Shown piece by piece: positions 4,522-62,662 of a stretch of 64,000 nucleotides of DNA. This DNA is from Candidatus Avidehalobacter gallistercoris (GTDB taxonomy: Bacteria > Bacillota > Dehalobacteriia > UBA4068 > UBA4997): NCBI GenBank assembly GCA_018715045.1, contig DVMH01000022.1:10291-74290 (forward strand). The letters run 5' to 3'. Both the position numbers and the translations under genes were made by a program. The notes under the pieces are model-generated. The model was not told the DNA's origin, did not search any database, and saw only the letters and a list, made by a program, of their open reading frames with translations. Positions within the stretch are counted from its first letter, which is position 1. Each line of letters begins with the position of its first letter.

Positions 4522-4785
4522 ATGCAGGAATATATCGCGAAGCGTGTGTTGGAAATCAGCAATTACATAATTGAAAGCAAATCTACCGTACGGCAGACGG
4601 CGGGCGTTTTTGGCGTCAGCAAAAGCACCGTACATAAGGACGTGACCGAACGTCTGCCGCTGTTGAATGAGGTGGTGGCCGGGCAGGTGCGGGAGATTTT
4701 GGCCAACAACAAAGCGGAACGGCATCTTCGGGGCGGTATGGCGACCAAGCGGAAATATGAGCATTTGGCTGAGGGCGCTGAATAG
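4522..4785 (+). CDS. spoIIID: Stage III sporulation transcriptional regulator SpoIIID
   Basis: The 87-aa product matches B. subtilis SpoIIID almost residue-for-residue in the HTH (GVSKSTVHKD.TERLP...IRHLRGG.ATK.KY). Confidence 0.9.
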   Translation: MQEYIAKRVLEISNYIIESKSTVRQTAGVFGVSKSTVHKDVTERLPLLNEVVAGQVREILANNKAERHLRGGMATKRKYEHLAEGAE

Positions 4786-14161: not shown

Positions 14162-14440
14162 ATGATGAACAAAACCGAATTGATTAATGCTATCGCGGCG
14201 GAAGCGGAAATCAGCAAAAAGGACGCCGGCAAGGCTCTGGAGGCCTTTGTAGACGTGGTAACTAATAGCTTGAAGAAAGATGACAAGGTTCAGCTGATCG
14301 GCTTTGGCACTTTTGAAGTGCGTGAGCGCGCTGCTCGCGAGGGTCATAATCCGCAGACCGGCAAGAAGATCACCATTGCAGCTGCCAAGGTGCCTGCGTT
14401 TAAGGCTGGCAAGGCTTTGAAAGACGCCGTGGCGAAATAA
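14162..14440 (+). CDS. hbs: DNA-binding protein HU
   Basis: 92 aa with the canonical HU sequence ([11 protein letters not shown]...[44 protein letters not shown]). Confidence 0.95.
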
Positions 14441-14874: not shown

Positions 14875-15159
14875 ATGAAGGCGGAAACAAATGGTAACGC
14901 CGGTGAGAACACCATACTGATCACCGACCGCAAGATGCTGGAGCTGCACGGTGTGCTGCGGGTGGAGGATTTTGATAACGAACAGGTCAATCTTGAGACA
15001 ACACAGGGCCGGCTGGTGGTGCGCGGGCGGAATCTGCATGTGGCGCAACTGCTGCTGGAAAGCGAAGAGCTTTCGCTTGAAGGCGAGATCGATAGCCTGA
15101 GTTTTGAAGAAACTCCTGGCAAAAAACGCAGCCGCCTGCTGGCTCGGCTGACCAAATAG
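14875..15159 (+). CDS. yabP: Sporulation protein YabP
   Basis: KMLELHGVLRVEDFDNEQVNLETTQGRLVVRGRNLHVAQLLLE matches the YabP family. Conserved position after yabO. Confidence 0.8.
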   Translation: MKAETNGNAGENTILITDRKMLELHGVLRVEDFDNEQVNLETTQGRLVVRGRNLHVAQLLLESEELSLEGEIDSLSFEETPGKKRSRLLARLTK

Positions 15160-15744
15160 ATGGACAGGGCGGAATTTCAGGCCGTGCAGCTGGTGTTGGC
15201 CTTTGTGCTGGGAGTGGGTCTCGGCATATTTTACGACGTTTACCGGGTGTGGTTCCGCAGAACGCAGGCTCGTGCGGTCAAGGGGCTGGGTGATATCATT
15301 TGGTGGCTGGCGGCGCTCGGGCTGGCTGCTTGGGCATTTTACCGCATAAACTCGCTATCGCTCAGGGCAGCGCCGCTGGCGCTGGCGCTTTTGGGGGTGG
15401 CGGTGCAACAGTGGTTGGTGAGCCCTTGGGCGTTTCCGTTGTTGCAACGTTTCTGTCATGCGGCGGAGCGATTTTTGGGCTGGGTGATGCAGCTTTTGCA
15501 GCGTGCGGTGGCGTTTATGCTACTGCCGCTGGTTTGGCCGGTGGAATTGGTCTTTCGCCTGCTGCTGGTGTTGATGCATCTGGTTCGCCGCCTGATGAAC
15601 TTGCTGGAACGGATTTTGCGGTGGCTGTTTGCGCCGCCTGTGCGCTTTTTGCGGCGGGTGGGCGGCGCAGTTAAGCGGCGGCTAAAGCGGCTTTTGGTTT
15701 CCACACCCGATGAACAGTCGGATGAGCTGGTGGAAGATACATAA
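15160..15744 (+). CDS. yabQ: Spore cortex biosynthesis membrane protein YabQ
   Basis: N-terminal TM helices and a variable basic C-terminal tail; position between yabP and divIC. Confidence 0.65.
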   Translation: MDRAEFQAVQLVLAFVLGVGLGIFYDVYRVWFRRTQARAVKGLGDIIWWLAALGLAAWAFYRINSLSLRAAPLALALLGVAVQQWLVSPWAFPLLQRFCHAAERFLGWVMQLLQRAVAFMLLPLVWPVELVFRLLLVLMHLVRRLMNLLERILRWLFAPPVRFLRRVGGAVKRRLKRLLVSTPDEQSDELVEDT

Positions 15745-24951: not shown

Positions 24952-24989
24952 TATACATAAACAATGCTTTTAAGGAGGCTGTAAAATAG

Positions 24990-27431: not shown

Positions 27432-27475
27432 ACGTAAGTATTGTTGAGAGTTTTGAGTGAGGGAGGTTTTCTTTG

Positions 27476-28636
27476 ATGAGCAAAAAAGAATGTCTGGCTA
27501 TGCTGCTGGCGGGCGGCCAAGGCAGCCGTCTGGGGGCGTTGACCAGAAAAATCGCCAAGCCGGCTGTTTCGTTCGGCGGCAAATACCGTATCATTGATTT
27601 CAGCCTAAGCAACTGTGTTAATTCCGGTATTGATACCGTGGGTGTGCTGACGCAGTATCGGCCGCTGATGCTGAATTCCTACATCGGTACTGGCGCGCCC
27701 TGGGATTTGGATGAGGCCGCAGGCGGTGTTTTCGTGCTGCCGCCGTATGCTACGCAGGACGGCGCGGAATGGTATAACGGTACTGCGGATGCGGTGTATA
27801 AAAATTTGGATTTTATTGAAAGCTATGACCCGGAATATGTGCTGATCATCTCCGGAGACCACCTTTATAAGATGGACTACAATCTGATGCTGGATTTCCA
27901 CAAGCAAAGCGGTGCGGAACTTACCGTTTCTGTCATTGAGGTGCCGCTGGAGGAAGCTGGACGTTTCGGTATCATCACGGCGGCGGCAGACGGCAAAATC
28001 GAGAAGTTTACTGAAAAGCCTGCCAATCCGGACAGCAATCTTGCCTCGATGGGGATCTACATATTCAACTGGCCAACGTTAAAGCAGGCGCTGTTGGCTG
28101 ACGCTAAACTCAGCGAGTCTGATCATGATTTCGGCAAGAACGTGATCCCCATGCTTTTAGCCGAGGGGAAACGCCTTTATGCCTATGCCTTTTCCGGCTA
28201 CTGGAAAGACGTTGGCACGATTGAAAGCTATTATCAGACCAGCATGGACCTGCTGCGTGAGGACAGCGAGTTTGACATCTTCTCTGGCGGGCAGCGCATT
28301 TTCAGCAATTCCAACATCTATCCGCCGCATTATGTGGGCGAGAATGCTGTCATTGAAAATGCCGTGGTTTGCAATGGCTGCACTGTGCTGGGTGAGGTGA
28401 AAAACTCTATTGTCAGCTCTGAGGCGTATGTGGGCGCAGGGGCTAAGGTGGAAAACGCCATACTTCTTCCCGGCGCACGGGTGGAAAACGGCGCCCGCGT
28501 CATGCGCGCTATCGTGGGCGAGGGCGCGGTGATTGAGATGAACGCTTATTTCGGCAGCATGGAAGAGACCGAGCCTGTGCAGGTCTGCGGCGACGGCGAG
28601 CATATCAAGGACGATTTGTGGAGCAGGGGGTATTAA
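27476..28636 (+). CDS. glgC: Glucose-1-phosphate adenylyltransferase
   Basis: [13 protein letters not shown]...[25 protein letters not shown] matches GlgC. GGGAGG SD precedes ATG 27476. Confidence 0.92.
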
Positions 28637-28637
28637 A

Positions 28638-29741
28638 ATGAGCGGCAGAATTCTAGGACTGATTTCCTGCAACTATAATAACGACGCGTTTGGCAGCCTG
28701 ACTGCTGAACGAGGTATGGCGGCGCTGCCTTTCGGCGGACGCTACCGCGTGCTGGATTTTCCTCTTTCCAACATGGTGAACTCAGGCATACGCACGATCG
28801 GGCTGATTACGCCCTATCATTACCGCGCCATTATGGATCACGTCGGCGTGGGCAAGGAATGGTCGCTGAACCGCAAAAGCGGCGGTATGTTCATTCTGCC
28901 GGGCTCGATTTACGGACTGAAGAATATGCGCTCTACATTTCTTCTGCGCGACATAATTCAGAATCGTGCTTTTTTGGAGCGCGGCGATGAGGAATATGTC
29001 CTCGTTTCCGGCAGCCATAAGGTGTATAATATGGATATGCGGCCGCTTTTTGCGGCTCACCGTGCTTCTGGCTGTGATGTGACGCTGCTTTATAAACAAA
29101 CGGATGACGCTGAAAACCACAAAGAAAGCTATCTGATACTGGACGGTGACCGGGTCAAGGGCTTTGCAGCCGAGGCGCAGGGCAGCGCGGCTTGCTTTAT
29201 GGACTGCTTCATCATTAACCGCGAGCTGCTGCTTAAGTTTATCGAATGGTATAAGGCGCTGGGTTATCTGGATGTGATGGATATTATGGCGGAGAACCTG
29301 CCGAACCTGAACGTGGGTGCTTATCCGTTTGAGGGTTACCTGGGTCAGATGAACAATATCCGCGATTATATGGCCTGTTCGCAAGACCTGCTGCGTGAGG
29401 AGGTACGGCGAGAGGTGTTCTCTGCCGAGCATAAGGTTTGCACCAAAGCTCAGGATAACCCGCCCGCCAAATACGGCGTAAATCCCCTGGTACATAATGC
29501 GCTTGTGCCCACTGGCTGCATTATTGACGGCACGGTGGAAAACAGTATTCTGTTTCGCGGTGTTAAAGTGGGAGAGGGGGCGGTTGTCCGAAACTGTGTC
29601 ATCATGCAGAAAACCGTGGTGGAAGCGGGTGCAGTGCTGGAAAATGTCATCTGCGATAAATATGTGACCGTTAGCCGTGGCAACAAGCTGTTCGGTACGT
29701 CTGCCAAGCCGTTGGTGATACCCAAGGGAAGCGAAATTTAA
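28638..29741 (+). CDS. glgD: Glucose-1-phosphate adenylyltransferase regulatory subunit GlgD
   Basis: Paralog of GlgC lacking the GGxGxRL activator-site glycine run (ALPFGGRYRVLDFPLSNMVNSGI); sits immediately after glgC, as in Firmicutes. Confidence 0.85.
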   Translation: MSGRILGLISCNYNNDAFGSLTAERGMAALPFGGRYRVLDFPLSNMVNSGIRTIGLITPYHYRAIMDHVGVGKEWSLNRKSGGMFILPGSIYGLKNMRSTFLLRDIIQNRAFLERGDEEYVLVSGSHKVYNMDMRPLFAAHRASGCDVTLLYKQTDDAENHKESYLILDGDRVKGFAAEAQGSAACFMDCFIINRELLLKFIEWYKALGYLDVMDIMAENLPNLNVGAYPFEGYLGQMNNIRDYMACSQDLLREEVRREVFSAEHKVCTKAQDNPPAKYGVNPLVHNALVPTGCIIDGTVENSILFRGVKVGEGAVVRNCVIMQKTVVEAGAVLENVICDKYVTVSRGNKLFGTSAKPLVIPKGSEI

Positions 29742-29777
29742 TTTAAGTGAATTACATTGAAACGGGTGAAATAAAAT

Positions 29778-31235
29778 ATGGTAAAAAGCAAAAATGCGCC
29801 GCGGGTTTTGTTTGCCAGCTTTGAGGCCGAGCCTTTCGGTAAAACCGGCGGCCTGGGCGAGGTGGCGGGGAGCCTGCCACAGGCGCTGAAACGGGCTGGT
29901 GCGGAGGTGCGCGTAATACTCCCGAAACTGCCGACTATGCCGGAAAGGCTTGCAGCGCGGCTTCAGCACGTGGCGGATTTTAAGCTGCCGCTGGGCTGGC
30001 GCTGGCAGTATTGCGGCGTTGAGCGGCTGGACTATAAGTATCAGACCTATTATTTCATCGATAATGAGTATTATTTTAAGCGCGGCGCTTTCTATGGCTA
30101 TGACGATGACGCCGAGCGCATCGCCTTTTTTGCCAAGGCGGTGCTGGAGGCTTTACAGTATATCCCGGATTTTCAACCGCAGCTTATCCACTGCAACGAC
30201 TGGCATACCGCGCTGGTGCCGGTGCTGCTTAGGGAGCAGTATATGCAGGCCGCGGGCTATAGTGGGATCAGAACGCTGTTTTCAGTGCATAATCTGAGAT
30301 TTCAGGGTAAATATGACCCCAATTTTTTGGGCGACGTATTGGGCTTGGCGGATAAAAAGCCCGCGCGTGATCAGCTTATCCGCGATGGGGCGCTGAATTA
30401 TATGTTGGGAGGGATCTGCTATGCCGACCGTCTGCTTACAGTGAGTCCCACCTATGCGGAGGAGATTTGTACGCCCGCTTTTGGCGAAGGGCTGGACGAT
30501 GTGTTCCGCCGTCGTGGGAATGTGCTGGCCGGCGTGTTAAACGGTATTGACGTTAAAACATATGACCCGGAGCGTGACAAATTTATTCCGGCCTGTTTCA
30601 GCGCTGCCAAAATGACCGGCAAGGCCGCCTGCAAAGCTGCCGCACAGCGCGAGTTCAACCTGCCGGAGCGGTCTGATTTGCCTATGTTGGTGCTTATAAG
30701 CCGTCTGACTGAGCAGAAAGGGCTTGACCTGCTGCTGCATATTCTGGGCGAACTGCTGGAGCAACCGGTGCAGGTGGCGGTACTGGGCGTTGGTGACCAA
30801 AAATATGAAAATGCTTTTCGCTGGTTTAACGATAAATATGAGAATTTTGCCTGCCGTCTGCAATTTGACGACCGGCTGGCGCATTTGCTTTATGCTGGGG
30901 GCGACGCTCTGTTGATGCCATCAAAATTCGAGCCATGCGGGCTGGCGCAGATGATTGCCATGCGCTATGGCACGTTGCCCATTGTGCGGGAAACAGGAGG
31001 GCTTAAAGATAGCGTCACACCTTATAACCAATATACTGGTGGAGGCACGGGCTTCAGCTTCGCCAATTATAACGCGCATGAGCTGCTGTTTACGGCAAAA
31101 ATGGCATTGAGTGTTTATTATGACAGCCCCAAGGTGTGGCGCCGTCTGCAAAAGCAGGCAATGGCGCAGGATTTCAGCTGGAACCGTTCGGCGGAAAAGT
31201 ATGTTGAAATTTATAAACAATTATTAAGCGAATAA
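29778..31235 (+). CDS. glgA: Glycogen synthase (ADP-glucose type)
   Basis: FASFEAEPFGKTGGLGEV...LP; GT5 family C-terminal motifs (PSKFEPCGLAQMIAMRYGTLPIVRETGGL). Confidence 0.92.
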   Translation: MVKSKNAPRVLFASFEAEPFGKTGGLGEVAGSLPQALKRAGAEVRVILPKLPTMPERLAARLQHVADFKLPLGWRWQYCGVERLDYKYQTYYFIDNEYYFKRGAFYGYDDDAERIAFFAKAVLEALQYIPDFQPQLIHCNDWHTALVPVLLREQYMQAAGYSGIRTLFSVHNLRFQGKYDPNFLGDVLGLADKKPARDQLIRDGALNYMLGGICYADRLLTVSPTYAEEICTPAFGEGLDDVFRRRGNVLAGVLNGIDVKTYDPERDKFIPACFSAAKMTGKAACKAAAQREFNLPERSDLPMLVLISRLTEQKGLDLLLHILGELLEQPVQVAVLGVGDQKYENAFRWFNDKYENFACRLQFDDRLAHLLYAGGDALLMPSKFEPCGLAQMIAMRYGTLPIVRETGGLKDSVTPYNQYTGGGTGFSFANYNAHELLFTAKMALSVYYDSPKVWRRLQKQAMAQDFSWNRSAEKYVEIYKQLLSE

Positions 31236-42431: not shown

Positions 42432-42866
42432 AAAGCTTGTTATGCATATATATAGCAATAGAAATCAAAAATGCTATACAGTAAAACCTGGCAGCACAGG
42501 CAGAAAAGCGAGATGTCCTGGTCAATAGAGAGAACTGCCGGAATAAAAACAACAGCAGTTACGCTTACTTTTTCAAGTACGCTTTTGGCAACTATGCCAA
42601 ATGTTGTATTGTCAGCAATGTTTGGTTGCCTGTCAAGCTGTTTTGCACGCCTGCTTAAAAATGATATTCGCGATTGTTTAGTCAATTTTGTGCTGTACCT
42701 TTATTAGAAATAATACGATTTATTTTTCATACTTTCGGCAATATTAACTTACGCACTAAATTATAACTCATATGAGATATGCTGTCAAGTTCAAGTTAAT
42801 ACTACAATATATTTCAAATAAGTTATAAAATTAAGTTAGTAAACGCCGGAGGGGGTGTGCAGGCAT

Positions 42867-43175
42867 ATGGATATCATTGGCAAGCTGCGGCATCTCATGG
42901 AGCAGAAGGGCTGGACGGAGTATCGGCTGGCTAAGGAGGCCGGGCTGTCGCAGTCTACCATAGCCAATATTTTTCACCGCCAAACATTGCCTTCGATTCC
43001 GACTCTGCAAACGCTTTGCCAGGCATTTGGCATAACACTCAGTCAGTTTTTTGCCGAAAATGAACCGGTGGCTTTGTCTGCTGAGCAGACGAAAATGCTT
43101 GCCGCGTATTCCTGTCTGACGCCTAAGCGGCAAAAGCTGGTTGCTGCAATGATAGAGGAACTGCAGATAAAATAA
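42867..43175 (+). CDS. XRE-family helix-turn-helix transcriptional regulator
   Basis: HTH_XRE signature (LRHLMEQKGWTEYRLAKEAGLSQSTIANI). GGAGGGGG SD precedes ATG 42867. Confidence 0.75.
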   Translation: MDIIGKLRHLMEQKGWTEYRLAKEAGLSQSTIANIFHRQTLPSIPTLQTLCQAFGITLSQFFAENEPVALSAEQTKMLAAYSCLTPKRQKLVAAMIEELQIK

Positions 43176-50494: not shown

Positions 50495-51439
50495 TCAGCC
50501 CAGCAGCATACGGTCGGCGTAGATTGCCGCGCCCAGGGATACTGCTGCCGGGTCGGTGATCAAATAGATGGGGATTTTGGCCAGCGCCGCCGCGAACGGA
50601 CCGGGGATAACAAAACTATCAATGATTGCTGCCTCGTCCAGCAGGGGGGCGAGCTTCTGGCAGACGCCGCCCGCCAGATACACGCCGCCGCTGCACAGCG
50701 TAACCAGCGCCAAATTGCCCAGCGCTGATCCCATACAGCCGCTGAATAGCCGAACAGTCTGCAAAGCCAGTGCGTCGCCCTCCGTTGCCAGGGCGTTAAT
50801 AGCGTCCGGGGGCAATGGTGGCGAGTCCGGGCTGAGCGCTGTATAGATGCGTGAAAGCCCAGCGCCGGAAAGCAGCGTTTCATTGGTGATATTGCTACCG
50901 ATACTGGCGCATAAAGCAGCTTGAGCGGCATTGGCCGGGGCAAAGCGGCAATGCCCTGCTTCGGTGGGTATGGCCTGCCCGCCGGGGAGAAGTGCCGCTG
51001 CCCCGAAGCCGGTGCCGCAGGCGGCGGCCAGCTTTACGGTGCGGGTTTGGCTGTGCTCCGCCTGTGGGTTTAGATTTTTCAGCGCTGTTCCCGGCAGCCA
51101 ATTTATTGCGTGCGCCAGCGCTGCCAGATCGTTCAGCACGGTGAGACGGCTGCCTGAGGGCAATGCCTGCCTCAGCCTGCTAACGTCCAGCGTGCAGGGG
51201 TTGTTGGTCAGGCGCAGCGTGCCGTCTGCTCTTTCTGCTCCGGCAAAGGCAACAGCAGTGGCCTCGAGGTCGCAGGTGTCAGTCAGAAATTGGTGCAGGC
51301 GGGTGATCAGCTTCTGTTCGCTGGCATAATCGGTGGGGAATGCGGCTGTTTTCTGTAATATCGGCGCGGCGCAGGTACACTGCCAAAGCGTGATTTGCGT
51401 CTTGCTGCCGCCGATATCCAGTGTTAAAATCTGGGTCAT
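50495..51439 (-). CDS. glk: Glucokinase (Glk family, E. coli-type)
   Basis: LTLDIGGSKT near the N-terminus; TEAGHCRFAPANAAQAAL...SNETLLSGAGLSRIY matches the Glk region TEGGHVDFAP...ERVLSGPGLVNLY. Confidence 0.75.
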   Translation of the reverse strand: MTQILTLDIGGSKTQITLWQCTCAAPILQKTAAFPTDYASEQKLITRLHQFLTDTCDLEATAVAFAGAERADGTLRLTNNPCTLDVSRLRQALPSGSRLTVLNDLAALAHAINWLPGTALKNLNPQAEHSQTRTVKLAAACGTGFGAAALLPGGQAIPTEAGHCRFAPANAAQAALCASIGSNITNETLLSGAGLSRIYTALSPDSPPLPPDAINALATEGDALALQTVRLFSGCMGSALGNLALVTLCSGGVYLAGGVCQKLAPLLDEAAIIDSFVIPGPFAAALAKIPIYLITDPAAVSLGAAIYADRMLLG

Positions 51440-51596: not shown

Positions 51597-53354
51597 ATGC
51601 TGAGCAGGGAGGCTGCCAAACGCTATCAGGAGTGGCTGGAAGCGCCGTTTCTTAAGGAGGCGGATCGGGCAGAACTGAAGAATTTGACCGATGAAAAAGA
51701 GATCACCGACCGTTTTTACTGTGATTTGGAATTCGGCACGGGAGGCATGCGGGGCGAGCTGGGTATCGGCACTAACCGCATGAATATTTATCTGATCCGG
51801 CGGCTGACTCAGGCGCTGGCGGATACCGTAATTGAGCATGGCGGAGCGGCGCGCGGCGTGGCAATATCCTATGATTCGCGGCGTTTTTCCCGTGAGTTTG
51901 CGTCTGCTGCGGCGGGTGTGCTGGCGGCCAATGGCGTAAAGGCGTATCTTTTCTCGGAGCTGGCTCCTACGCCGGTGCTTTCATTTGCGGTGCGGTATAC
52001 TCAGGCTATGGCTGGTATTATGGTGACAGCCAGCCACAATCCCAAGCAGTATAACGGTTATAAAGTCTACTGGGAGGACGGCGGCCAGCTGCCGCCGGAA
52101 CAGGCGGATAAGATAATAGCCAAAATGGCCGAGCGCAACTCCTGGGAAGTGGCGGAAATGCCGCTGGATGAGGCGAAAAAGCGCGATTTGCTGGAAATGT
52201 TGGGCGGAACGCTGCATGACGCATATACCGCCAAGGTGAAAGAGCAGCTTCTGAATGTGGAACTTTGCGCGGCTAAGGGCGGCGAACTCAACATAGTTTA
52301 TACGCCGCTTTCCGGTACGGGGCGCAGGCCGGTGGAGCGTATTTTGATGGAAATCGGCTTTAAAAATCTGTACACCGTGGCGGCACAGGCTGAACCGGAT
52401 GAGGAATTTGCCACTGTGACCGTGCCGAATCCGGAGGACGCGGGGGCATGGGCGCTTTCTGAACAGCTGGCGGCCGATATTGAGCAGAACACGGGGCAAC
52501 CTGTCGATTTGCTGTTGGCCACCGATCCGGACGCTGACCGCCTTGGCGTTTGCTGCCGGCAGCCGGAGGGCGGATATCTGCGGCTTTCCGGCAATCAGGT
52601 TGGCGTACTGCTGGCTTATTATATCATCAAGCGTGAGAGTGAACTGGGGATTTTGCCTGAAAATGCGCTGGTGTTGAAAAGCGTAGTTTCCACCGCGCTC
52701 GCTAACCGTGTGGTGCAGTCGCTGGGCGTTGCCATTAAGGATGTGCCTGTTGGCTTTAAGTATATAGGAGAACAGATCAAGCTGCTGGAAGATGACGGGC
52801 GCGAGCAGGATTTTCTGTTCGGCTTTGAGGAGAGTCTGGGTTATCTGAAAGGTACTTATGCCCGTGATAAAGATGCGGTGATAGCGGCGGCGCTGGTGGC
52901 CGAGGCGGCGCTTTATTACCGCGCTCAGGGGCAGACGCTGTTAGATGTGCTGCGCGGGCTGTATCAGGAGTTTGGCTATTATCTGGACGCGCAGGTGGCG
53001 CGCAGTTTCCCCGGTATTGACGGCCGGGAGCAAATGCGGGAAATCCTGCAACGGCTGACGGCGGACAGACGTGATACTCTGGGCGGGCTCAATGTGGCCT
53101 CCCGGGAATATTATGCGCGGGGTGAGCAGCTGATAAACGGCAAAGTGAAGCCGCTTGATTTTCCCCAGGTGGATATGTTAGGGCTGACTTTTGCGGCGGG
53201 AGGCGGTTTTATCAAGGTACGTTCCAGCGGCACTGAGCCGAAGCTCCGTTTCTATTTCTGTGTCAGCGGCGTGGACGAGGAGGCGGCATCCGCTAATTTG
53301 CAGGCTGTGCAGAAGGAATTTTTCCAGCCGGTCAGTGAGTTTATCAAACTTTAA
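51597..53354 (+). CDS. pgcA: Phosphoglucomutase / alpha-D-phosphohexomutase family
   Basis: Active-site serine loop (MVTASHNPKQYNGYKV), FGTGGMRG, and the sugar-binding region FGFEESLGY. 585 aa, as in B. subtilis PgcA. Confidence 0.9.
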   Translation: MLSREAAKRYQEWLEAPFLKEADRAELKNLTDEKEITDRFYCDLEFGTGGMRGELGIGTNRMNIYLIRRLTQALADTVIEHGGAARGVAISYDSRRFSREFASAAAGVLAANGVKAYLFSELAPTPVLSFAVRYTQAMAGIMVTASHNPKQYNGYKVYWEDGGQLPPEQADKIIAKMAERNSWEVAEMPLDEAKKRDLLEMLGGTLHDAYTAKVKEQLLNVELCAAKGGELNIVYTPLSGTGRRPVERILMEIGFKNLYTVAAQAEPDEEFATVTVPNPEDAGAWALSEQLAADIEQNTGQPVDLLLATDPDADRLGVCCRQPEGGYLRLSGNQVGVLLAYYIIKRESELGILPENALVLKSVVSTALANRVVQSLGVAIKDVPVGFKYIGEQIKLLEDDGREQDFLFGFEESLGYLKGTYARDKDAVIAAALVAEAALYYRAQGQTLLDVLRGLYQEFGYYLDAQVARSFPGIDGREQMREILQRLTADRRDTLGGLNVASREYYARGEQLINGKVKPLDFPQVDMLGLTFAAGGGFIKVRSSGTEPKLRFYFCVSGVDEEAASANLQAVQKEFFQPVSEFIKL

Positions 53355-53516
53355 TACAAACGCCCTGCCGCTTTTTGGCTGGGCGTTTTTTATGGGAGAA
53401 TGCGGTGGATTTTGGCGAGTATATTTTCCTCCTTTCATGGGGAGTATCATGGATAAGAGCGGGTCTGAATAGCCGTACATAAGGCCGGCCTGCCAAAATC
53501 TGTGGGAGTGAGCAAA

Positions 53517-53870
53517 ATGTCGCTGAAACGGGGAGATATATTTTTTGCTGAGCTGAATCCGGTGCAGGGCAGCGAACAGGGGGGCGTGCGCCCTGTTCTG
53601 GTGGTGCAGAACGACGTGGGCAACAATTTCAGCCCGACTACTATAATACTTCCTATAACTTCCAAACTGAGCAAGGCCAAGCTGCCCACACATGTGGAGA
53701 TTTCCCGCCGTGAATCAGGCCTGTCGCGTGATTCGGTAGTGCTGGCTGAGCAGATACGCACCATTGACAAGGTGCGCCTGCAGCAGAAAGTGGCTTGTTT
53801 GAACGAAATTACAATGTCACGCATTGATCATGCGATGGAGATAAGCATGGGTATTGTTCCCACAACTTAA
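53517..53870 (+). CDS. ndoA: MazF/EndoA-type endoribonuclease toxin
   Basis: Roughly 65% identical over its length to B. subtilis EndoA (KRGD.YFA.L.PV.GSEQGGVRPVLV.QND.GN.FSPT.I...IT....KAKLPTHVEI......RDSV.L.EQIRTIDK.RL). GGGAG SD precedes ATG 53517. Confidence 0.85.
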   Translation: MSLKRGDIFFAELNPVQGSEQGGVRPVLVVQNDVGNNFSPTTIILPITSKLSKAKLPTHVEISRRESGLSRDSVVLAEQIRTIDKVRLQQKVACLNEITMSRIDHAMEISMGIVPTT

Positions 53871-53924: not shown

Positions 53925-54596
53925 ATGTGTTTTGTTGGCGTGACCTGCGGCCGGCAGTGTGAGGATTTTATGCTCTCTGCGGCATATTTGAAAGCATTAA
54001 ATGATGTGGGGCTGCACGGGGTGATTCTCCCGCCGCAAACGGGCGATTTTGTGCTGCCAGAGGGAATCTCCGGCATTGTACTTTCCGGCGGGGGCGATCC
54101 GCATCCGCTGCTTTGGAACGAGGAGCCGCATAGCGACCTTGGCGAGGTAGACGCGGTGCGTGATTTGTGGGAGATCGCTCTCTGCCGGGCGGCGCTGGCG
54201 GCAGATCTGCCGCTGCTGGGTATCTGCCGGGGTATGCAGGTGCTTAATGTGGCTCTTGCCGGTACGCTCTGGCAAAATTTGCAGGAGCGAGGCGGTAACG
54301 TCTCACACTGGCAGACGGCGGATATGGCCTGCGGTTGGCATAATGTTGTCTGCCGGGGTAAACTCTCGGAAATTTACGGTGAAGCGCCGGCTAAAATGCG
54401 TGTGAATAGCCATCATCATCAGGGTATCAGGCTGCTGGGCGAAGGGTTAAGAGCTTGCGCCTATGCTATGGACGGTCTTATCGAGGGGATAGAGCTGCCG
54501 GAGAGGCGTTTTGCTCTGGGTGTGCAATGGCACCCGGAGCGTCTGGCGGCAGGACGGAAGCTTTTGGCATCTTTTGCGGCGGCCTGCGCGCTATGA
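53925..54596 (+). CDS. Gamma-glutamyl-gamma-aminobutyrate hydrolase family protein (peptidase C26, class-I glutamine amidotransferase-like)
   Basis: Catalytic Cys in GICRGMQ, HHHQ, and His in VQWHPE. Confidence 0.8.
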   Translation: MCFVGVTCGRQCEDFMLSAAYLKALNDVGLHGVILPPQTGDFVLPEGISGIVLSGGGDPHPLLWNEEPHSDLGEVDAVRDLWEIALCRAALAADLPLLGICRGMQVLNVALAGTLWQNLQERGGNVSHWQTADMACGWHNVVCRGKLSEIYGEAPAKMRVNSHHHQGIRLLGEGLRACAYAMDGLIEGIELPERRFALGVQWHPERLAAGRKLLASFAAACAL

Positions 54597-54710
54597 TTTT
54601 GGGAAAATTGGCCAAAGGGGCTTGAGCTTTGCCCGTCAAAAGTAGTATACTTAATGCGTGTTCCGCAGCTTTGGGAACGCGCATTATTATTTGGAAATGG
54701 CAGTGTGAAT

Positions 54711-55196
54711 ATGCAGAAGATTTCGGCTTATACCCCGGAGGACACGTTTAATTTCGGCCGCCGTCTGGGCGAGCATGTTCCTGCGGGAGCGTTTATTGCT
54801 CTTTGGGGCGAGATGGGCGCAGGCAAAACTCTGTTCTCGCAGGGATTTGCGGCGGGGCTTGGCGTTTGCGAACCGGTAACCAGCCCCACCTTTACGATTG
54901 TTAATGAATATGGCGGCGGTCGGCTGCCGCTGGTACATATGGATTTGTTCCGCCTTGCCAGTCTTGATGAGGTGTGGGAACGTGGCGTTTGGGAATATTT
55001 TGATGGGCTCGCTGTGGTGCTGGTGGAATGGCCGGAGGTGCTGGCGGAGGAACTGCCGGAGGATAGGCTGGATATTCGCCTGATCCGACGCTTGGACGGA
55101 GCAGGAGAGGAATGGCGGGATATTGAAATTGCTGCGTATGGCGAGCAAATTTGGCTGGAGGAGGCGTTATCCGATGGCGAAAATTTTAGGAATTGA
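54711..55196 (+). CDS. tsaE: tRNA threonylcarbamoyladenosine biosynthesis ATPase TsaE
   Basis: Walker A (ALWGEMGAGKT) then SPTFTIVNEY. The track ORF begins 19 codons earlier; the MQKIS start gives the usual length of about 160 aa. Confidence 0.85.
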   Translation: MQKISAYTPEDTFNFGRRLGEHVPAGAFIALWGEMGAGKTLFSQGFAAGLGVCEPVTSPTFTIVNEYGGGRLPLVHMDLFRLASLDEVWERGVWEYFDGLAVVLVEWPEVLAEELPEDRLDIRLIRRLDGAGEEWRDIEIAAYGEQIWLEEALSDGENFRN

Positions 55197-55893
55197 CGCG
55201 GCCGGCAAGGGGCTTTCACTGGCGGTGGCCGAGGGGGATAAATTGCTGGCTTCGGCTTGTTTGAACGTGGGTTTGACCCATTCGCAGCGCCTGCTGCCGC
55301 AGCTTGCCGCCATGCTGGACGCAGCTGCTCTGACTATGCAGGATATTGATTTGATAGCGGTGACCAATGGCCCTGGCTCTTTTACCGGGCTGCGAATTGG
55401 TTTGGCAACGGCCAAAGGACTGGCTGAGGGGCGGGGTATCAAGCTGCTGCCTGTCTCCACGCTGGAGGCGGAGGCTTATGCCGTGCGCGGCATGGGCGCA
55501 TACATCTGCCCGGTGCTGGACGCGCGGCGTAATGAAGTCTATACTGCGCTTTATACGCCGGAGGGGGCGGAGATTTGGCTGCCTGCCGCGCTTTCGCCGC
55601 AGGCTCTGGCCGAAAAACTGCGAGAATTTTTGTCTGGCAATTCACCGCATCAGGTGATTTTTGTCGGTGATGCGGCGGACTTATATATTGCACAAATGCG
55701 GCAAGAACTGCCGGGGGCGGTTCTTATCGCACCGCCGGAACGGCGGCTGTTCGGAGCGCTGGGCTGTGCTTTTCTGGCTGGCAAAAGACAAGAGGATGCG
55801 CTGCCGCCGGAGCGGGCAGAAGCGTTTTATCTGCGGCTTTCCGAGGCGGAGCGCAACCGCAATGCAAAACTTGCGGCGGAGGCGGACAAATGA
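55174..55893 (+). CDS. tsaB: tRNA threonylcarbamoyladenosine biosynthesis protein TsaB
   Basis: ILGIDAA...LSLAV.....L and NGPGSFTGLRIGLATAKGLA match the YeaZ/TsaB family. GGAGGAGG SD precedes ATG 55174. Confidence 0.85.
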   Translation: MAKILGIDAAGKGLSLAVAEGDKLLASACLNVGLTHSQRLLPQLAAMLDAAALTMQDIDLIAVTNGPGSFTGLRIGLATAKGLAEGRGIKLLPVSTLEAEAYAVRGMGAYICPVLDARRNEVYTALYTPEGAEIWLPAALSPQALAEKLREFLSGNSPHQVIFVGDAADLYIAQMRQELPGAVLIAPPERRLFGALGCAFLAGKRQEDALPPERAEAFYLRLSEAERNRNAKLAAEADK

Positions 55894-56360
55894 GCCTTGA
55901 TGGTGAAATGCTGCTGGAATTGTGCGAGTCGAACGCGGCGCTTTATTTGCCCCAGCTGCTGGCGATTGAAAATGAGGCGTTTGCCGAACCATGGAGCGAG
56001 ACGGCTTACCGGGCAGAAATAGCGCGCCCCATCTCGCACGTTTTGCTGCTGGTGCGGGAGGAAACGCTGCTCGGTTACGCCGGGTTCTGGCAGGTGCTGG
56101 ATGCGGCGGAGATCAACAATGTAGCGGTGGCCAGGCCTTGGCGCGGCGAGGGCTTGGGCTATCAGCTGCTTTCCGGCCTTTTGGATATGGCGGCGATTTT
56201 GGGCTGCTGCCGGGTCAATCTGGAGGTGCGGGCGGGCAATGCCGCGGCACAGGCGCTTTACGCCAAATGTGGCTTTACGGTTAACGGACATCGCCCTGGC
56301 TATTATGAGGACAACCATGAGGATGCGTTGCTGATGGGTTGCGAACTTAAAAAATACTAA
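55890..56360 (+). CDS. rimI: Ribosomal-protein-alanine N-acetyltransferase (GNAT)
   Basis: GNAT acetyl-CoA motif (VAVARPWRGEGLGYQLL); conserved position between tsaB and tsaD. Confidence 0.85.
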   Translation: MSLDGEMLLELCESNAALYLPQLLAIENEAFAEPWSETAYRAEIARPISHVLLLVREETLLGYAGFWQVLDAAEINNVAVARPWRGEGLGYQLLSGLLDMAAILGCCRVNLEVRAGNAAAQALYAKCGFTVNGHRPGYYEDNHEDALLMGCELKKY

Positions 56361-56375
56361 CGGAGGGTGCGGCAT

Positions 56376-57380
56376 ATGGTGAAGATTCTGGCGATTGAAA
56401 GCAGTTGCGACGAAACGGCAGCTGCGGTGATAACGGACGGTTACCAGCTGCTTTCCAACGTGGAGGCGACGCAGATACCTGTCCATCAGCTTTATGGCGG
56501 CGTGGTGCCGGAAATTGCCAGCCGCGAACATCTTAATGCTGTGGTGCCGGTGGTGCGGCGTGCCCTGCTGGACGCGAATCTGGCGCTGGCCGACTTGGAC
56601 GCAGTGGCGGTGACGCAGGGCCCTGGGCTTATCGGCTCTTTGTTGGTTGGCGTCAGCTATGCCAAAGCTCTGGCGTTTGCCGCGGGGCTGCCGCTGATTG
56701 CGGTGCACCATCTGGAGGGGCATATAAACGCGCCTTTTCTGGAACACCCGGAGCTTGAATTTCCCTATCTGGCGCTGGTGGTCTCCGGCAGCCACAGCGG
56801 GGTTGCGCTGGCCGAAAAGCCGGGCTATTATAAGCTGCTGGGGCAGAGCCGCGATGACGCTGCAGGCGAGGCATTTGACAAAATCGCGCGGGCGCTGGGG
56901 CTTACGTATCCCGGTGGGCCTGCTATTCAGCAGGCGGCCTTGACGGGCGAGCCGGTTTATGATTTTCCCTCGGCGTGGCTGGAGGGAACGTATGATTTCA
57001 GTTTCAGCGGGCTAAAATCCGCCGTGCTGAATTTCCTGAACCAAAAGCAGATGAAAGGCGAAACATATCGCGTGGCGGACGTGGCGGCTTCAGCACAGGA
57101 GGCTATCGTGCGTGTACTGGCGGAAAAGGCCGTGCGGGCAGCTCGGGAATATGAACGTGATACGATAGTGCTGGCGGGCGGCGTGGCGGCCAACCAAGCG
57201 TTGCATGAACGTGTACAGAGCTTGGCGCCGGAAATGCGGGTAATTTATCCCTCGCCCAAATTCTGCACCGATAATGCGGCGATGATCGGGGCGGCGGCGC
57301 TGGGTAAATTTGCTCGGGGCGAGTTCGCTGATTTTTCGCTGAACGCGGAGGCTAATCTGCCGCTTTATTTTTATGCGTGA
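56376..57380 (+). CDS. tsaD: tRNA N6-adenosine threonylcarbamoyltransferase TsaD
   Basis: ILAIESSCDETAAAV...; metal-binding HH motif (AVHHLEGH); GGVAAN. Confidence 0.92.
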   Translation: MVKILAIESSCDETAAAVITDGYQLLSNVEATQIPVHQLYGGVVPEIASREHLNAVVPVVRRALLDANLALADLDAVAVTQGPGLIGSLLVGVSYAKALAFAAGLPLIAVHHLEGHINAPFLEHPELEFPYLALVVSGSHSGVALAEKPGYYKLLGQSRDDAAGEAFDKIARALGLTYPGGPAIQQAALTGEPVYDFPSAWLEGTYDFSFSGLKSAVLNFLNQKQMKGETYRVADVAASAQEAIVRVLAEKAVRAAREYERDTIVLAGGVAANQALHERVQSLAPEMRVIYPSPKFCTDNAAMIGAAALGKFARGEFADFSLNAEANLPLYFYA

Positions 57381-59305: not shown

Positions 59306-59390
59306 TCCATGCCCCTTGACATAGATACCAAAACTTAGTATACTTATCGAAAAGGTAGGTAATAATTGTCGGTTAGGGGGCTGGATCATA

Positions 59391-61895
59391 TTGCGGAAAT
59401 TTAAGGTTATGGGCATGAGTTGTGCAGCCTGTAGCAGCCGGATAGAAAAGACTGTGTCAAATGTGCCGGGCGTATCCTCCTGCACGGTTAGCCTGCTCAC
59501 CAACTCTATGGGCGTAGAGGGTGAGGCGACGAGCGAAGCAATTATTGCGGCTGTGCGCGCGGCCGGCTATGATGCCGCAGTGGAGTGCGCTGCGGCGCAA
59601 ACGGCATCTGCGAATCAGGATTCCCTTAAGGATATTGAAACGCCGCGGCTGATGGCGCGCTTGCTGTGCTCGCTGGGCTTTTGGCTGGTGTTGATGTACG
59701 GCACGATGGGGAATATGCTGCTAAATCTGCCGCTGCCTGGGGTGCTGGCGGATAACCCGATCACCATGGCGTTGGCGGAACTGTTGTTGACTGTTATCGT
59801 TATGGTAATTAATCAAAAATTTTTTATTTCCGGCTTTAAGGGGCTGTTGCATTGCGCGCCAAATATGGATACGCTGGTGGCGCTGGGCGCGGCGGCGGCG
59901 TTTGTTTACAGCTTGTGCGTAATGTTTATGATGACGGTGGCTGAAGCTTCCGCCCAGGCAGCTTATCTGCATGAGTTATATTTTGAATCTGCCGCCACTA
60001 TTTTGACGTTGATAACACTGGGCAAAATGCTGGAGGCGCGTTCGAAAGGTAAGACGACGGACGCGCTGCAAAGCTTGCTGCGTCTTTCGCCTACCATGGC
60101 GGTGGTATTGAAAGACGGCGTGGAGCAGGACGTGCCGGTGCAGGATGTGCGGCAGGGCGACGTCTTTATCGTGCGGCCGGGCGAGCATATCCCGGTTGAC
60201 GGAGAGGTTTTGCAGGGCGCCAGCGCGGTGAATGAGGCGGCGTTGACCGGGGAGAGTATACCGGTGGAGAAAGCCCCCGGCGACGCGGTTTCTGCTGCCA
60301 CGGTCAACCAATCCGGGCATTTGACCTGCCGTGCCACCCGAGTGGGCGAGGATACGACGCTGGCACAGATCATTCGGCTGGTTAGCGACGCGGCGGCAAC
60401 TAAGGCCGAAATCGCCAAACTGGCGGACAGAGTTTCCGGCGTGTTTGTGCCGGCGGTTATTGCGATTGCTCTGGTGACGGCGGTCGTCTGGCTGGCTGTG
60501 GGTGAAAGCGTGGGCTTCGCGCTTGCGCGGGGCATATCGGTGCTGGTAATCAGCTGCCCCTGCGCTTTGGGGCTGGCTACGCCGGTAGCGATCATGGTAG
60601 CCAGCGGTATGGGCGCCAAGGCGGGCATTCTGTTTAAGACGGCCGCATCGCTGGAGGAAATGGGCAAAGCGGTTATCGTGGCGCTGGATAAGACAGGAAC
60701 GATTACCCGCGGTGAGCCGGCGGTGACGGATATTCTGCCGGAGCAGGGCGTCGCCGCGCAGGAGTTGCTGCGGCTGGCTGCGGCGCTGGAGGTTAAAAGC
60801 GAACACCCGCTGGCGAGTGCAGTGGTGCGCCGGGCGCAGGCGGAAGGTCTGATATCTGCACAGGCGGAGGATTTTACCGCTTTACCGGGGCTGGGTTTAA
60901 GCGGCACGTTAAACGGTAAGAAGCTGCTGGGCGGTAGCTTGGCGTATATCAGCGGAGAGACTGCATTGCCGCAGGCGGCGCGTCAGAAAGCGGAGGAACT
61001 GGCAGGCGCGGGCAAAACGCCGCTGCTTTTTGCGTATGACGGGCGGCTGCTGGGTATAATAGCCGTGGCAGACGTGATAAGAGAGGGAAGCCCCGCCGCT
61101 ATCCGTGAATTGCAGCAGCTGGGCTGTCGGGTGGTGATGCTGACGGGCGATAACGAGCGCACAGCGGCTGCTATCGGGCGCGAGGCCGGGGTGGACGAGG
61201 TGTTTGCTGAACTTATGCCTGCCGGCAAGGAGCAAATCGTGCGCCAGCTTGGTAAGCTCGGCAAAGTTGTCATGGTAGGTGACGGTATTAACGACGCTCC
61301 GGCGCTGGCTGCGGCGGACTTGGGCGTGGCTGTCGGCGCCGGAACTGATGTCGCCATCGACGCGGCGGACGTGGTGCTGATGAAGAACAGTCTGGCTGAT
61401 GTGGCGGCGGCGGTGCGCTTGAGCCGTGCAACGCTGCGGACGATCAAACAAAATCTGTTCTGGGCTTTTGCCTATAACGCGGCGGGCATACCGTTGGCGG
61501 CTGGCGTATTCATTCCTCTGTTCGGCTGGCAGCTGAACCCGATGTTCGCGGCGGCGGCCATGAGTCTTTCCAGCTTCTGCGTGGTGACCAATGCTCTTAG
61601 GTTAAACACGTTTAAGATGTATCCGCCGACTGATCGGGCAGAAATTGCACTGAAAAATACAACGCTAATTAAGGAGGAACCTAAAATGGAAAAGGTTTTA
61701 CACATTGATGGCATGATGTGCGGTAATTGTGAGAAGCACGTGAAGAAAGCGCTTGAGGCGTTACCGGGTGTGAGTAAGGTCGAGGCCAGTCATGTTGACG
61801 GCACGGCTGTGGTGACGATCTCCGGTGAGGTCAGCGACGAACAGCTTAAAAGCGCCGTGGCGGCCGAGGATTATACCGTCACTTCTATTGATTGA
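59391..61895 (+). CDS. copA: Copper-translocating P1B-type ATPase with N-terminal HMA domain and an additional in-frame C-terminal CopZ-like HMA domain
   Basis: [13 protein letters not shown] (HMA), [30 protein letters not shown]; C-terminal [19 protein letters not shown]... (second HMA) preceded in-frame by an AAGGAGGA SD and ATG. TTG start at 59391 with an AGGGGG SD. Confidence 0.85.
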
Positions 61896-62130: not shown

Positions 62131-62254
62131 GTACACGATAATCCGTGCAATATGGTATCATGGCTATAAAAATTTTTGCGAGATTTTTGTAAGATTTGAG
62201 TTCAAAAGTGGTGTATATAGGTGAAAGGGTAAAAATGAAAGTGAGGTGGGTTCA

Positions 62255-62662
62255 ATGGATGATGCGCAGATAGTCCAACTATACTGGGATAGAAGTGAGC
62301 AGGCAATCCCTGCTACAGCAGACAAGTACGGCAACTACTGTACTTCGATTGCCAAGAACATACTGGTAAACAAACAAGATGCAGAAGAATGTGTCAATGA
62401 TACATACTTGAACGCATGGAACTCCATTCCGCCGAACAGGCCGGGAAATCTCTCTACCTTTCTTGGGAAGATTACAAGGAACTTATCAATCAAACGCTAC
62501 AATCGCAATGCTGCGGACAAACGAGGCGGTGGTCAATTGCCGGTAGTTTTGGATGAAATGTTGGAACTGGTATCAGATACAGATAGTGTAGAGCAGGAGA
62601 TAGACCGCAGAGAACTTATATTCGTTTCCGCTTGCCGATTCCGTACCGGAAGAATTATTTGA
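62255..62662 (+). CDS. Sigma-70 region-2 (ECF-like) domain protein, possibly frameshifted/disrupted
   Basis: DAEECVNDTYLNAWNSIPP resembles ECF sigma region 2.2. Low GC. A second open frame with no start codon (62604-62861) continues downstream in another frame. GTGAGGTGGG SD precedes ATG 62255. Confidence 0.4.
   Translation: MDDAQIVQLYWDRSEQAIPATADKYGNYCTSIAKNILVNKQDAEECVNDTYLNAWNSIPPNRPGNLSTFLGKITRNLSIKRYNRNAADKRGGGQLPVVLDEMLELVSDTDSVEQEIDRRELIFVSACRFRTGRII

Follow-up and report, generated by a model that had tools for sequence, protein, structure and literature searches.

The stretch of DNA analysed here (64 kb in all, called the window below) comes from the uncultured gut bacterium Candidatus Avidehalobacter gallistercoris and carries at 53517-53870 a mazF (ndoA) gene for a solitary EndoA-type MazF endoribonuclease of 117 amino acids (aa), recognised by its Pfam match, by similarity and by individual residues; all features lie on the + strand unless stated otherwise. 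The subject of this study is the missing antitoxin gene of this mazF and the features of its leader that may have taken over its control. The first-pass annotation of this stretch had described a very EndoA-like ndoA ortholog without ndoAI/mazE upstream, and both statements were borne out. The open reading frame (ORF) is unbroken from the ATG at 53517 to the stop codon at 53868-53870, and its product matches PF02452 PemK_toxin over residues 4-109 of 117 (E 2.1e-34) and is 59% identical to B. subtilis EndoA across 114 aa. The nearest solved structures, 7BXY, 4HKE, 4ME7 and 4MDX (E 1e-42 to 7e-45), are EndoA-type MazF proteins of B. anthracis, B. cereus and B. subtilis, and an identical protein record (HIU10506.1) comes from a Candidatus Avidehalobacter gallistercoris metagenome-assembled genome (Peptococcaceae incertae sedis).

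The gap between mazF and the gene before it, pgm (phosphoglucomutase, 51597-53354, PGM_PMM domains I-IV), is exactly 162 nucleotides (nt) long. pgm lies outside the mazF unit and is followed by a terminator-like hairpin at 53361-53391, with a stem at 53361-53369/53377-53385 and then six T (the terminator scan matched 53369-53385 plus the T-run to 53391). Downstream of this hairpin the gap contains a conserved block, GTGGATTTTGGCGA (53405-53418), a promoter pattern of the sigma-F (forespore) type (53419-53448), a predicted leader hairpin (53459-53493) with the sequence TACATA in its apical loop (53476-53481, 41 nt before the ATG), and a Shine-Dalgarno sequence, GGGAGTGAG (53504-53512), which is located 4-12 nt before the ATG and is invariant across close relatives. 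The gap length and the hairpin had been given correctly in the first-pass annotation, whereas its statement that no ORF in the gap exceeds 26 aa needs a small correction: ORFs starting with ATG reach at most 24 aa, but there is one TTG-initiated ORF of 35 aa at 53375-53482. This ORF has no Pfam match and no conservation in relatives. In a type II mazEF module an antitoxin gene is immediately upstream of the toxin gene and co-transcribed with it; here the gap holds the pgm terminator and no EndoAI-like ORF.

Results

Searches of the window for an antitoxin by tblastn, by hidden Markov models (HMMs) and by small-ORF scans were all empty. The tblastn search, proposed in the first-pass annotation and run here against the 64 kb with MazE, EndoAI, ChpBI and Kis sequences, found nothing better than E 0.13. 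For the HMMs, the ORF just 5' of mazF was taken from 80 genome loci with genes for close relatives of MazF, and the toxin-binding motif G-Y-x-E-M-x-x-I-N-L was present in 71 of them. Two models were built, one from these 71 full EndoAI-type antitoxins and one from their C-terminal helix alone, and when all stop-to-stop segments of 12 aa or more from the six frames of the window were searched with them, the best matches had E values of 9-25, which is noise level. Very short antitoxins would have been detected by this search, because a mini-antitoxin of 37 aa encoded at one related locus (L179) was scored at E 4e-13. None of 70 small window ORFs outside large genes belongs to the ribbon-helix-helix (RHH), AbrB/MazE or Phd families. 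The sole antitoxin-like fold class among the small ORFs examined is an Xre-type helix-turn-helix (HTH) protein of 106 aa at 42855-43172 (HTH_3, E 1e-12), 10 kb from mazF and with no toxin-like gene among the adjacent genes that were checked.

The gap itself was no more productive. The inspection of its small ORFs, also proposed earlier, gave none that is conserved among relatives: the window leader encodes MDKSGSE followed by a stop, L175 has an unrelated ORF of 16 aa, and L180, L001 and L084 have none. A conserved small ORF was rejected on these grounds, and the candidates of 35 aa and 93 aa have no Pfam match. The GATase gene downstream of mazF was considered as an antitoxin in reverse order and rejected, as it is not constantly adjacent: TraX, UDG or tsaE are found in its place in relatives, and in L175, L084, L087 and L089 it is absent or set apart from mazF by other genes. 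Antisense ORFs across mazF (53178-53693 and 53447-53824, minus strand) have no family match and were taken as spurious.

Related loci, here numbered with the prefix L, were collected by genome, metagenome and look-up searches, 175 in total. An EndoAI-type ORF lies upstream of mazF in 126 of them (canonical loci), about 46 are without it (orphan loci), and 3 more without it are cut by a contig edge. Many of the orphan loci have alr followed directly by mazF. The metagenome loci contain no relative closer than 71% and were used only for the statistics of orphan versus canonical loci. Since 126 of the 175 related loci have an EndoAI-type ORF upstream, the absence of mazE in the window exceeds chance. 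Where the antitoxin is present, it is always encoded in cis, upstream and within 600 nt, usually 0-10 nt before mazF.

The orphan arrangement is not confined to one assembly. A protein identical to window MazF occurs on 136 contigs, and all 22 of the 22 contigs that were read, from different samples, have the same order, with glk on the opposite strand, then pgm, mazF and GATase in the forward direction, then tsaEBD. No antitoxin ORF was found in 11 diverged relatives. The four closest, L180, L001, L175 and L182 (94, 91, 88 and 87% MazF identity), have pgm-mazF; L084 and L093 (85 and 84%) have pgm-mazF-traX-GATase-tsaEBD; and L085 and L091 (81 and 80%) have a divergent response regulator gene, then mazF-GATase-amidohydrolase-tsaEBD. 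In L177 (76%) yjeF-alr is separated by 107 nt from mazF-GATase...tsaE, in L087 (70%) by 166 nt from mazF-UDG-tsaEBD, and in L089 (73%) mazF is divergent from a UDG-tsaEBD cluster. pgm thus adjoins mazF in relatives at 84-100% MazF identity. L179 (74%) has yjeF-alr and then the mini-MazE of 37 aa (MEEMIQGYLEMGALNLALAEDF...), which consists of the toxin-binding helix only, followed by a terminator-like hairpin plus 178 nt and by mazF-GATase-UDG-tsaE (mini-mazE at 2710-2823, mazF at 3001-3360 of that locus, with the hairpin between them). Gene callers annotate another, unrelated ORF of 52 aa beside mazF in L179. A full RHH-type antitoxin of 98 aa is encoded at L002 (71%).

Antitoxins of intermediate size are also found. 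Those of L003, L010, L016, L025, L078, L144 and L154 have 40-72 aa, lack the RHH DNA-binding domain and resemble S. aureus MazE, and those of L146 and L157 are truncated or degenerate. As judged from their sequences, these short antitoxins, taken with that of L179, represent graded steps between full-length MazE and its absence. mazE was likely lost in the ancestor of the Peptococcaceae-like clade to which the window belongs. The likely history starts from alr-mazE-mazF-...-tsaEBD, from which mazE shrank to its toxin-binding helix and was then lost, and mazF came to lie behind pgm, this final step probably in the Avidehalobacter branch. The first-pass annotation had placed alr 40 kb away and directly before hbs, and this is the case: alr (Ala_racemase_N/C) is at 12821-13984, about 40 kb upstream of mazF, and hbs/HU follows at 14162-14440. 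alr is still directly upstream of mazF in L087, L177 and L179, and the comparison of these loci identifies it as the ancestral partner of mazEF that has become unlinked in the window.

Pairwise dN/dS (the ratio of nonsynonymous to synonymous substitution rates) in the orphan clade is 0.04-0.12, at dS values of 1 to more than 2 or saturated. Because dN/dS is low at dS above 1, mazF has long been kept by selection without mazE. The orphan state is real and old and is no artefact.

For a comparison of residues, 122 MazE-partnered and 40 orphan MazF proteins were aligned with B. subtilis EndoA. The catalytic residues R25 and T48 (B. subtilis numbering), which are essential for activity (PMC10893535, PMC7354611), are present in window MazF, and their columns are invariant in 162 of 162 homologues. 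Every column without variation in partnered MazFs is equally fixed in the orphan clade, among them R5, G6, GSEQGG, R25-P26, Q31-N32, G35-N36, SPT, I47-T48, K53 and PTH, and further S73, E78-Q79, R81-T82, D84-K85, R87 and S110. The segments GSEQGGxRP, SPT, KLPTH and EQIRTIDK are invariant, as in UACAU(A)-cleaving MazFs. Because R25, T48 and all family-invariant residues are kept, a dead toxin is excluded at the sequence level.

These data bear on the possibility that the locus is a decaying or dead remnant of a toxin-antitoxin module, or that an error of assembly or sequencing masks mazE. A toxin gene that stands alone is often a remnant, and the first-pass annotation had itself named active-site substitutions and a mazE concealed in the 3' end of pgm as findings that would overturn its interpretation. 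Neither was found: no active-site residue is substituted, and no mazE lies in the 3' end of pgm or in any frame. The intact ORF, the low dN/dS across species with saturated dS and the conserved residues argue against a remnant, and the same arrangement on at least 22 independent contigs, together with the missing mazE in the 11 diverged relatives, argues against an error. A frame-shifted relic was not detected by protein HMM or by nhmmer. When an nhmmer nucleotide profile of 123 mazE 3' regions was run against the leaders of the window and of 36 orphan loci, no frameshifted mazE relic was found in any of these leaders, and the best match (E 1.8) was located elsewhere. One frame of the window leader, PYIRPACQNLWE followed by a stop, is faintly similar to GYMEMAKINL, and the leader was considered as a decayed mazE on this basis; nhmmer gave no support for this, and the Tyr-Met codons of canonical mazE give TACATG, not TACATA. 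A remnant or an error is accordingly a very improbable explanation. It may be added that in 25 of 124 canonical mazE genes (L002-L174) TACAT falls exactly on the Tyr-Met/Ile codons of GY[MI]EM, mostly as TACATG, and that this placement accounts for most TACAT sites in mazE.

The surface of window MazF differs from that of partnered toxins. Its clade-specific changes are V17Q, A46P and I51L. Ile51 is present in 122 of 122 partnered MazFs and is kept even with short or mini antitoxins (L003, L010, L016, L025, L078, L179), whereas L, M, R, H, K or T is found in 26 of 40 orphans from several lineages and contexts, a count in which the orphans are not phylogenetically independent. Ala46 is likewise present in 122 of 122 partnered MazFs, and Pro is found in its place in 12 of 12 window-clade members and in L049. 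Window MazF, with Pro46 and Leu51, has neither of the residues of the partnered-toxin surface. Residue 51 is within the beta3-beta4 loop (Thr48-His59), which is described as a main MazE-contacting region (PMC10893535, PMC7354611). Most simply read, this pattern means that MazE binding holds position 51 at Ile in partnered toxins and that orphans have been freed from this constraint.

This pattern is relevant to the explanation that an inhibitor protein encoded elsewhere, either a diverged MazE or an unrelated regulator, neutralises MazF, so that the locus would be one half of a toxin-antitoxin pair. Several points speak for it: the view is limited to 64 kb of the genome, the Xre-type HTH ORF (42855-43172) lies 10 kb away, a 2026 preprint keeps this option for Bacillota orphans (bioRxiv 10.64898/2026.08.06.743204), and Myxococcus xanthus is reported to have a solitary MazF whose regulator is encoded at a distance, with MrpC proposed for this role (PMC4803016). 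However, the MrpC antitoxin claim is itself disputed (PMC4803016), no EndoAI-like sequence exists in the window, and the antitoxin is in cis and upstream of mazF in every one of the 126 related loci that have it. Because Ile51 is free to vary in orphans, a canonical MazE in trans is argued against, and Leu51 in the window protein suggests that no MazE-type helix binds. An inhibitor encoded elsewhere is therefore considered unlikely.

The promoter pattern in the gap consists of a -35 element GTATA (53419-53423), a spacer of 15 nt and a -10 element GGGGAGTATC (53439-53448). It can be written as GTATA-N15-GGnnAnnnT and corresponds to the B. subtilis sigma-F consensus, which is GTATA for -35 and GGNAANAMTR for -10 (PMC3416734 Table 4); the -35 is exact. 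When the whole window was searched on both strands for GTATA-N14-16-GGNNANNNT, 2 matches were found, against a chance expectation of about 0.65 per window: the one at mazF (53419-53447) and one starting at 59338. This second match (59338-59366, GTATACTTATCGAAAAGGTAGGTAATAAT) lies 25 nt before the gene for a heavy-metal P-type ATPase (59391-61895, E1-E2_ATPase and HMA domains).

For the related loci, the 160 nt 5' of the first gene of the unit were searched, in 41 orphan and 122 canonical regions. GTATA-N14-16-GGNNANNNT was found in 16 of the 41 orphan regions (shuffle expectation 0.2) and in 2 of the 122 canonical regions (expectation 0.5). When the spacer was changed to 10-12, 18-20 or 22-24 nt, the orphan regions gave no match and the canonical regions gave 3, 1 and 0, respectively. 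Scrambled -35 elements gave no orphan match either (ATATG, 0 canonical; TAGTA, 1 canonical). The opposite distribution was seen for sigma-A-like promoters (at least 5/6 in each hexamer), which were found in 3 of 41 orphan and 37 of 122 canonical regions. The sigma-F-type pattern is located 62-118 nt before mazF in the whole window clade and in 3 distant orphans. The clade members L085, L091, L087, L089 and L177 carry it and were not used in defining it. At the specified positions of the B. subtilis -10 consensus the relatives match 5-8 of 8, and the distant orphans L113, L137 and L167 match 8/8, 7/8 and 7/8.

In alignments of the leaders of the closest relatives (A1 and A3) the common blocks are GCGAAATTTGGCG, GTATA, GGGnA, AAGAGCGG, TACATA, GCCAAAAYC and GGGAGTGAG. 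GTATA and GGGnA are invariant and 15 nt apart despite saturated dS, and because synonymous sites are saturated at that divergence, the conserved non-coding blocks are likely selected. The block at 53405-53418, just 5' of the -35, has invariant columns in both alignments and counterparts in L180, L001, L175, L182, L084 and L093; in L084 and L093 the block in this position is an AAATT-N5-AATTT palindrome. Possible roles of the block are those of an UP-like element or of a binding site for a regulator. On the whole, the comparison makes it probable, with some reservation, that the mazF promoter has switched to a sporulation-type sigma factor, which from the pattern would be sigma-F or a similar factor.

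The lineage carries endospore-formation genes, because SpoIIID (4522-4782; PF12116, E 9e-40; 59% identical to B. subtilis SpoIIID), YabP (14875-15159) and YabQ (15160-15744) are encoded in the window. sigF itself is not within the 64 kb. An ORF of 138 aa at 62246-62659 has a Sigma70_r2 domain only (E 3e-9) and is possibly a small sigma factor of the extracytoplasmic function type or a fragment.

The second conserved feature of the leader is TACATA (53476-53481), which in the transcript is U^ACAUA, the cut site of EndoA-type MazF. This sequence is cut by MazF of B. subtilis, L. monocytogenes, S. aureus and S. thermophilum (bioRxiv 10.64898/2026.08.06.743204; PMC10893535), and UACUUA, UACAUC and AACAUA are weaker substrates (PMC10893535). 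U^ACAUA is likely to be the specificity of window MazF as well, because it belongs to the same subfamily as EndoA, with 59% identity, R25/T48 and the RNA-contact segments in common. When TACATA was counted in leaders of 100 nt, it was found in 12 of 40 orphan leaders (expected 1.6) and in 7 of 122 canonical leaders (expected 4.8). It is retained in L180, L001, L175, L182, L084, L093 and L087 with varying flanks and block distances; dS to the window is 1.0-2.4 for five of these loci and saturated for L087, and L182 was unscored. Outside the window clade it is found in the leaders of L156, L137, L148, L158 and L167, and L137 and L167 combine the promoter pattern with UACAUA at the predicted 5' end of the untranslated region. 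An alternative role of TACATA as a sigma-A -10 element with a TTGATA/TGGATA-like block was rejected, as the spacing is 11-21 nt among relatives and there is no T at position 6.

Minimum free energy and partition-function folds of the leader predict the hairpin at 53459-53493 with the outer stem GCGGG/CCUGC. The fold assumes a transcription start about 7 nt after the -10, near 53455, and thus a leader of 62 nt. The probability that UACAUA is unpaired is 0.99 in the window and 0.84-0.97 in L180, L001, L084 and L093. RNAalifold keeps an outer stem of 4 bp in which G-C, A-U and G-U pairs occur, equivalent to a single compensatory change. No TACAT was found in a scan of the mazF coding sequence, and TACAT is about 2-fold depleted in mazEF/mazF coding sequences as a group (44 observed, 87 expected). 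Avoidance of UACAUA throughout the genome was also considered and is unsupported in the window, where the 25 sites equal the median of same-composition permutations. A tentative reading of the leader site, which we hold slightly short of an even chance, is that it mediates self-cleavage feedback.

The exposed position of UACAUA in the loop and the conservation of the leader, along with mini-antitoxins of 37-60 aa in relatives, could also be taken to mean that the 162-nt gap encodes a non-canonical antitoxin in cis, either a small peptide or the leader hairpin acting as a type III-like decoy or pseudo-substrate that sequesters MazF. However, no small ORF is conserved among relatives, and the region has no Rfam match at gathering thresholds, at which the only matches in the whole window are two tRNAs, so a known RNA family in the leader was rejected. 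A single site on the toxin's own mRNA would moreover be a stoichiometrically poor inhibitor that is destroyed by cleavage. Such an antitoxin is improbable.

A further explanation is that the antitoxin is simply dispensable: MazF with 6-nt specificity would be non-toxic at low levels, and the leader motifs would be ordinary promoter and untranslated-region elements with neither forespore specificity nor self-cleavage. This agrees with the description of B. subtilis MazF as a non-lethal regulator with a narrow regulon and with the figure of about 25% of MazF-bearing Bacillota that have no recognisable upstream antitoxin in the 2026 preprint. Many of the sampled orphan loci are without both motifs, and the window -10 is an imperfect sigma-F match. 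Left unexplained by it are the presence of GTATA-N14-16-GGnnAnnnT with strict spacing in 16/41 orphan against 2/122 canonical regions, the roughly 7-fold enrichment of the 6-mer cut site in orphan leaders only, and the persistence of both motifs at saturated dS. We regard this explanation, like that of an inhibitor encoded elsewhere, as having a minor share of the probability.

Several neighbouring genes are of interest for the organisation of the locus. A peptidase C26/class-I glutamine amidotransferase (GATase) gene, assigned by Pfam, is found at 53925-54596, 54 nt 3' of mazF; a terminator scan of this 54-nt spacer found no terminator-like site, and the gene is possibly co-transcribed with mazF. 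It is followed by the tsaE-tsaB-rimI-tsaD cluster (54654-57380; Pfam TsaE), the conserved neighbourhood of orphan mazF. Every relative examined has the tsaEBD cluster close to mazF, on the downstream side except in L089, where it is divergent and upstream, and the linkage holds also where alr is still upstream of mazF. A second sense-strand TACATA is located at 54934-54939 within tsaE, in the cluster directly 3' of mazF. If mazF shares a transcript with tsaEBD, or is expressed together with it, MazF would have tsaE mRNA among its targets. PADLOC found no defence-system match for mazF, pgm or the amidotransferase.

On the other side of pgm (51597-53354) is a glucokinase gene (50495-51439, - strand), so that these two genes stand next to mazF. 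A complete glycogen cluster at 23032-31235 encodes branching enzyme, glycogen phosphorylase, two ADP-glucose pyrophosphorylase subunits and glycogen synthase. In clostridia, storage-polysaccharide metabolism is tied to sporulation. The order of genes 3' of the distant alr is hbs/HU, yabO-like, yabP, yabQ and divIC.

Discussion

The locus is most likely no longer a toxin-antitoxin module but encodes a selected, catalytically competent solitary MazF, and that this solitary mazF is functional is a conclusion in which we have high confidence. The first-pass annotation had left three options for a toxin without an antitoxin in cis: the antitoxin could be encoded in trans, it could be a small non-canonical one, or the toxin could have been domesticated as a regulated RNase. 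A canonical MazE in trans and a small peptide in the gap are disfavoured by the data presented here, and a domesticated RNase is favoured, because the orphan state is old, mazF is under purifying selection with its residues intact, and its leader carries the promoter pattern and UACAUA. The model proposed here is that two elements acting in cis took the place of control by a protein antidote. A forespore-type (sigma-F/sigma-G-like) promoter, GTATA-N15-GGGGAGTATC, would confine transcription of mazF to the developing spore. Active MazF would then cut its own transcript at U^ACAUA in the loop of the leader hairpin, and the cut would remove the protective 5' structure together with the triphosphate end. 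In Firmicutes, exposure of an mRNA 5' end is expected to lead to 5'-to-3' decay by RNase J. The cut would in this way limit further synthesis of MazF, which would constitute negative feedback, and a MazF that is self-limited and developmentally timed could work without an antitoxin while remodelling the forespore transcriptome. For this model as a whole, a solitary MazF with its control moved to a forespore-type promoter and self-cleavage, we estimate a probability of about 0.45.

A number of observations weigh against this model, in addition to the restriction to 64 kb and the M. xanthus precedent mentioned above. The -10 of the window matches only 5 of the 8 specified sigma-F positions, although the consensus is that of B. 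subtilis and may not be that of this lineage. These sequences served in part to define the promoter pattern that was then tested on others, and many other orphan lineages have neither the promoter pattern nor a leader UACAUA. The orphan loci are phylogenetically non-independent, with about 3-4 lineages per motif, so that the raw counts overstate significance. Within the window clade, only near-cognate sites are found in the same place in L177 (UACUUA) and in L085 and L091 (AACAUA), and the leader of L089 is without a cut site. The hairpin is backed by one compensatory change among about 5 independent sequences. Finally, TACATA is not avoided in the window: there are 15 sites on the + strand, where 6.0 are expected from a first-order Markov model, and 10 on the - strand, where 8.4 are expected.

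The closest known system is NdoAI-NdoA of B. subtilis (EndoAI/EndoA, MazEF-bs), with which the window gene shares the toxin subfamily, R25/T48 and the RNA-contact segments. Orthologues of this system exist in Bacillus, Staphylococcus, Listeria and Clostridioides, and the linkage to alr is visible in L087, L177 and L179. The window differs from it in the absence of ndoAI/mazE and of an upstream alr, in the replacement of Ile51 and Ala46, in a promoter pattern that is of the sigma-F type rather than sigma-A-like, and in the cut site in the leader. A recent preprint describes B. subtilis MazF as a non-lethal mRNA regulator that is specific for the strict 6-nt sequence U^ACAUA and has a narrow regulon (bioRxiv 10.64898/2026.08.06.743204).

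A mazF gene without a cognate mazE is also known from Myxococcus xanthus, where MazF-mx is part of the developmental (sporulation) programme (PMC4803016, PMC2701414). As with MazF-mx, the window has no cognate antitoxin gene and its toxin is conserved and under selection. However, MazF-mx belongs to an unrelated subfamily and phylum and its control is by MrpC, a claimed and disputed toxin binder, so that the candidate controls in the window, a compartment-specific promoter and a self-target site, would stand in contrast to a protein partner in M. xanthus. Control of an EndoA-type MazF by sporulation has a precedent in Clostridia, because mazEF of C. difficile depends on a sporulation-specific sigma factor, in that case sigma-E (PMC3789822). 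The C. difficile operon is mother-cell specific and retains mazE, whereas the pattern in the window is of the forespore type and mazE is absent. Feedback by cleavage is known from E. coli, where MazF cleaves its own mazEF transcript (PMC5888573), and a similar loop is conceivable for the window. The E. coli loop relies on 3-nt ACA sites in the mazEF coding region and works together with MazE; in the window a single 6-nt site in a hairpin of the 5' untranslated region would be the only feedback.

Orphan EndoA-type MazF proteins in Bacillota have been reported before. Frenkel et al. (August 2026) examined about 3300 species of Bacillota and found MazF in 80%, with a putative upstream antitoxin in 75% of these; some genomes, e.g. 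of Enterococci, have no antitoxin, and a non-adjacent, Myxococcus-like regulator 'remains open' (bioRxiv 10.64898/2026.08.06.743204). Like those orphans, as far as they are described there, the window gene is an EndoA-type mazF with no upstream antitoxin, and such genes are sometimes beside alr; unlike them, the window clade, a Peptococcaceae-like lineage from the gut, has its mazF linked to tsaEBD. The preprint gives no mechanism, and term searches of it found no description of relaxation of Ile51, a sigma-F-type promoter or a leader UACAUA. Solitary MazF (M. xanthus) and orphan EndoA-type MazF in Bacillota (2026) are thus already known, and it is the proposed explanation that is new. In the literature searched, no description was found of a graded series of MazE loss, of an Ile51/Ala46 signature, of a link between orphan mazF and a sigma-F-type promoter, or of a 6-nt self-site in the leader.

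EndoA-type MazF belongs to the core genes of most Bacillota and has lately been recast as a precise mRNA regulator and not a poison. This locus and its relatives offer a testable answer for one group of the species that have MazF without a recognisable antitoxin, and the pieces of the explanation are the graded series of MazE loss, the signature of release at Ile51 and two cis features that possibly make the antitoxin unnecessary. In its widest form, which is possible though doubtful, the proposal would be that MazEF has been turned, in one clade of gut Clostridia and in one or more further orphan lineages, into an antitoxin-free forespore RNase that is transcribed by sigma-F/G, caps its own level and remodels or silences the forespore transcriptome toward dormancy. 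If true, this would show a route by which a toxin-antitoxin module becomes a developmental regulator, and it would tie MazF to spore formation in abundant gut anaerobes.

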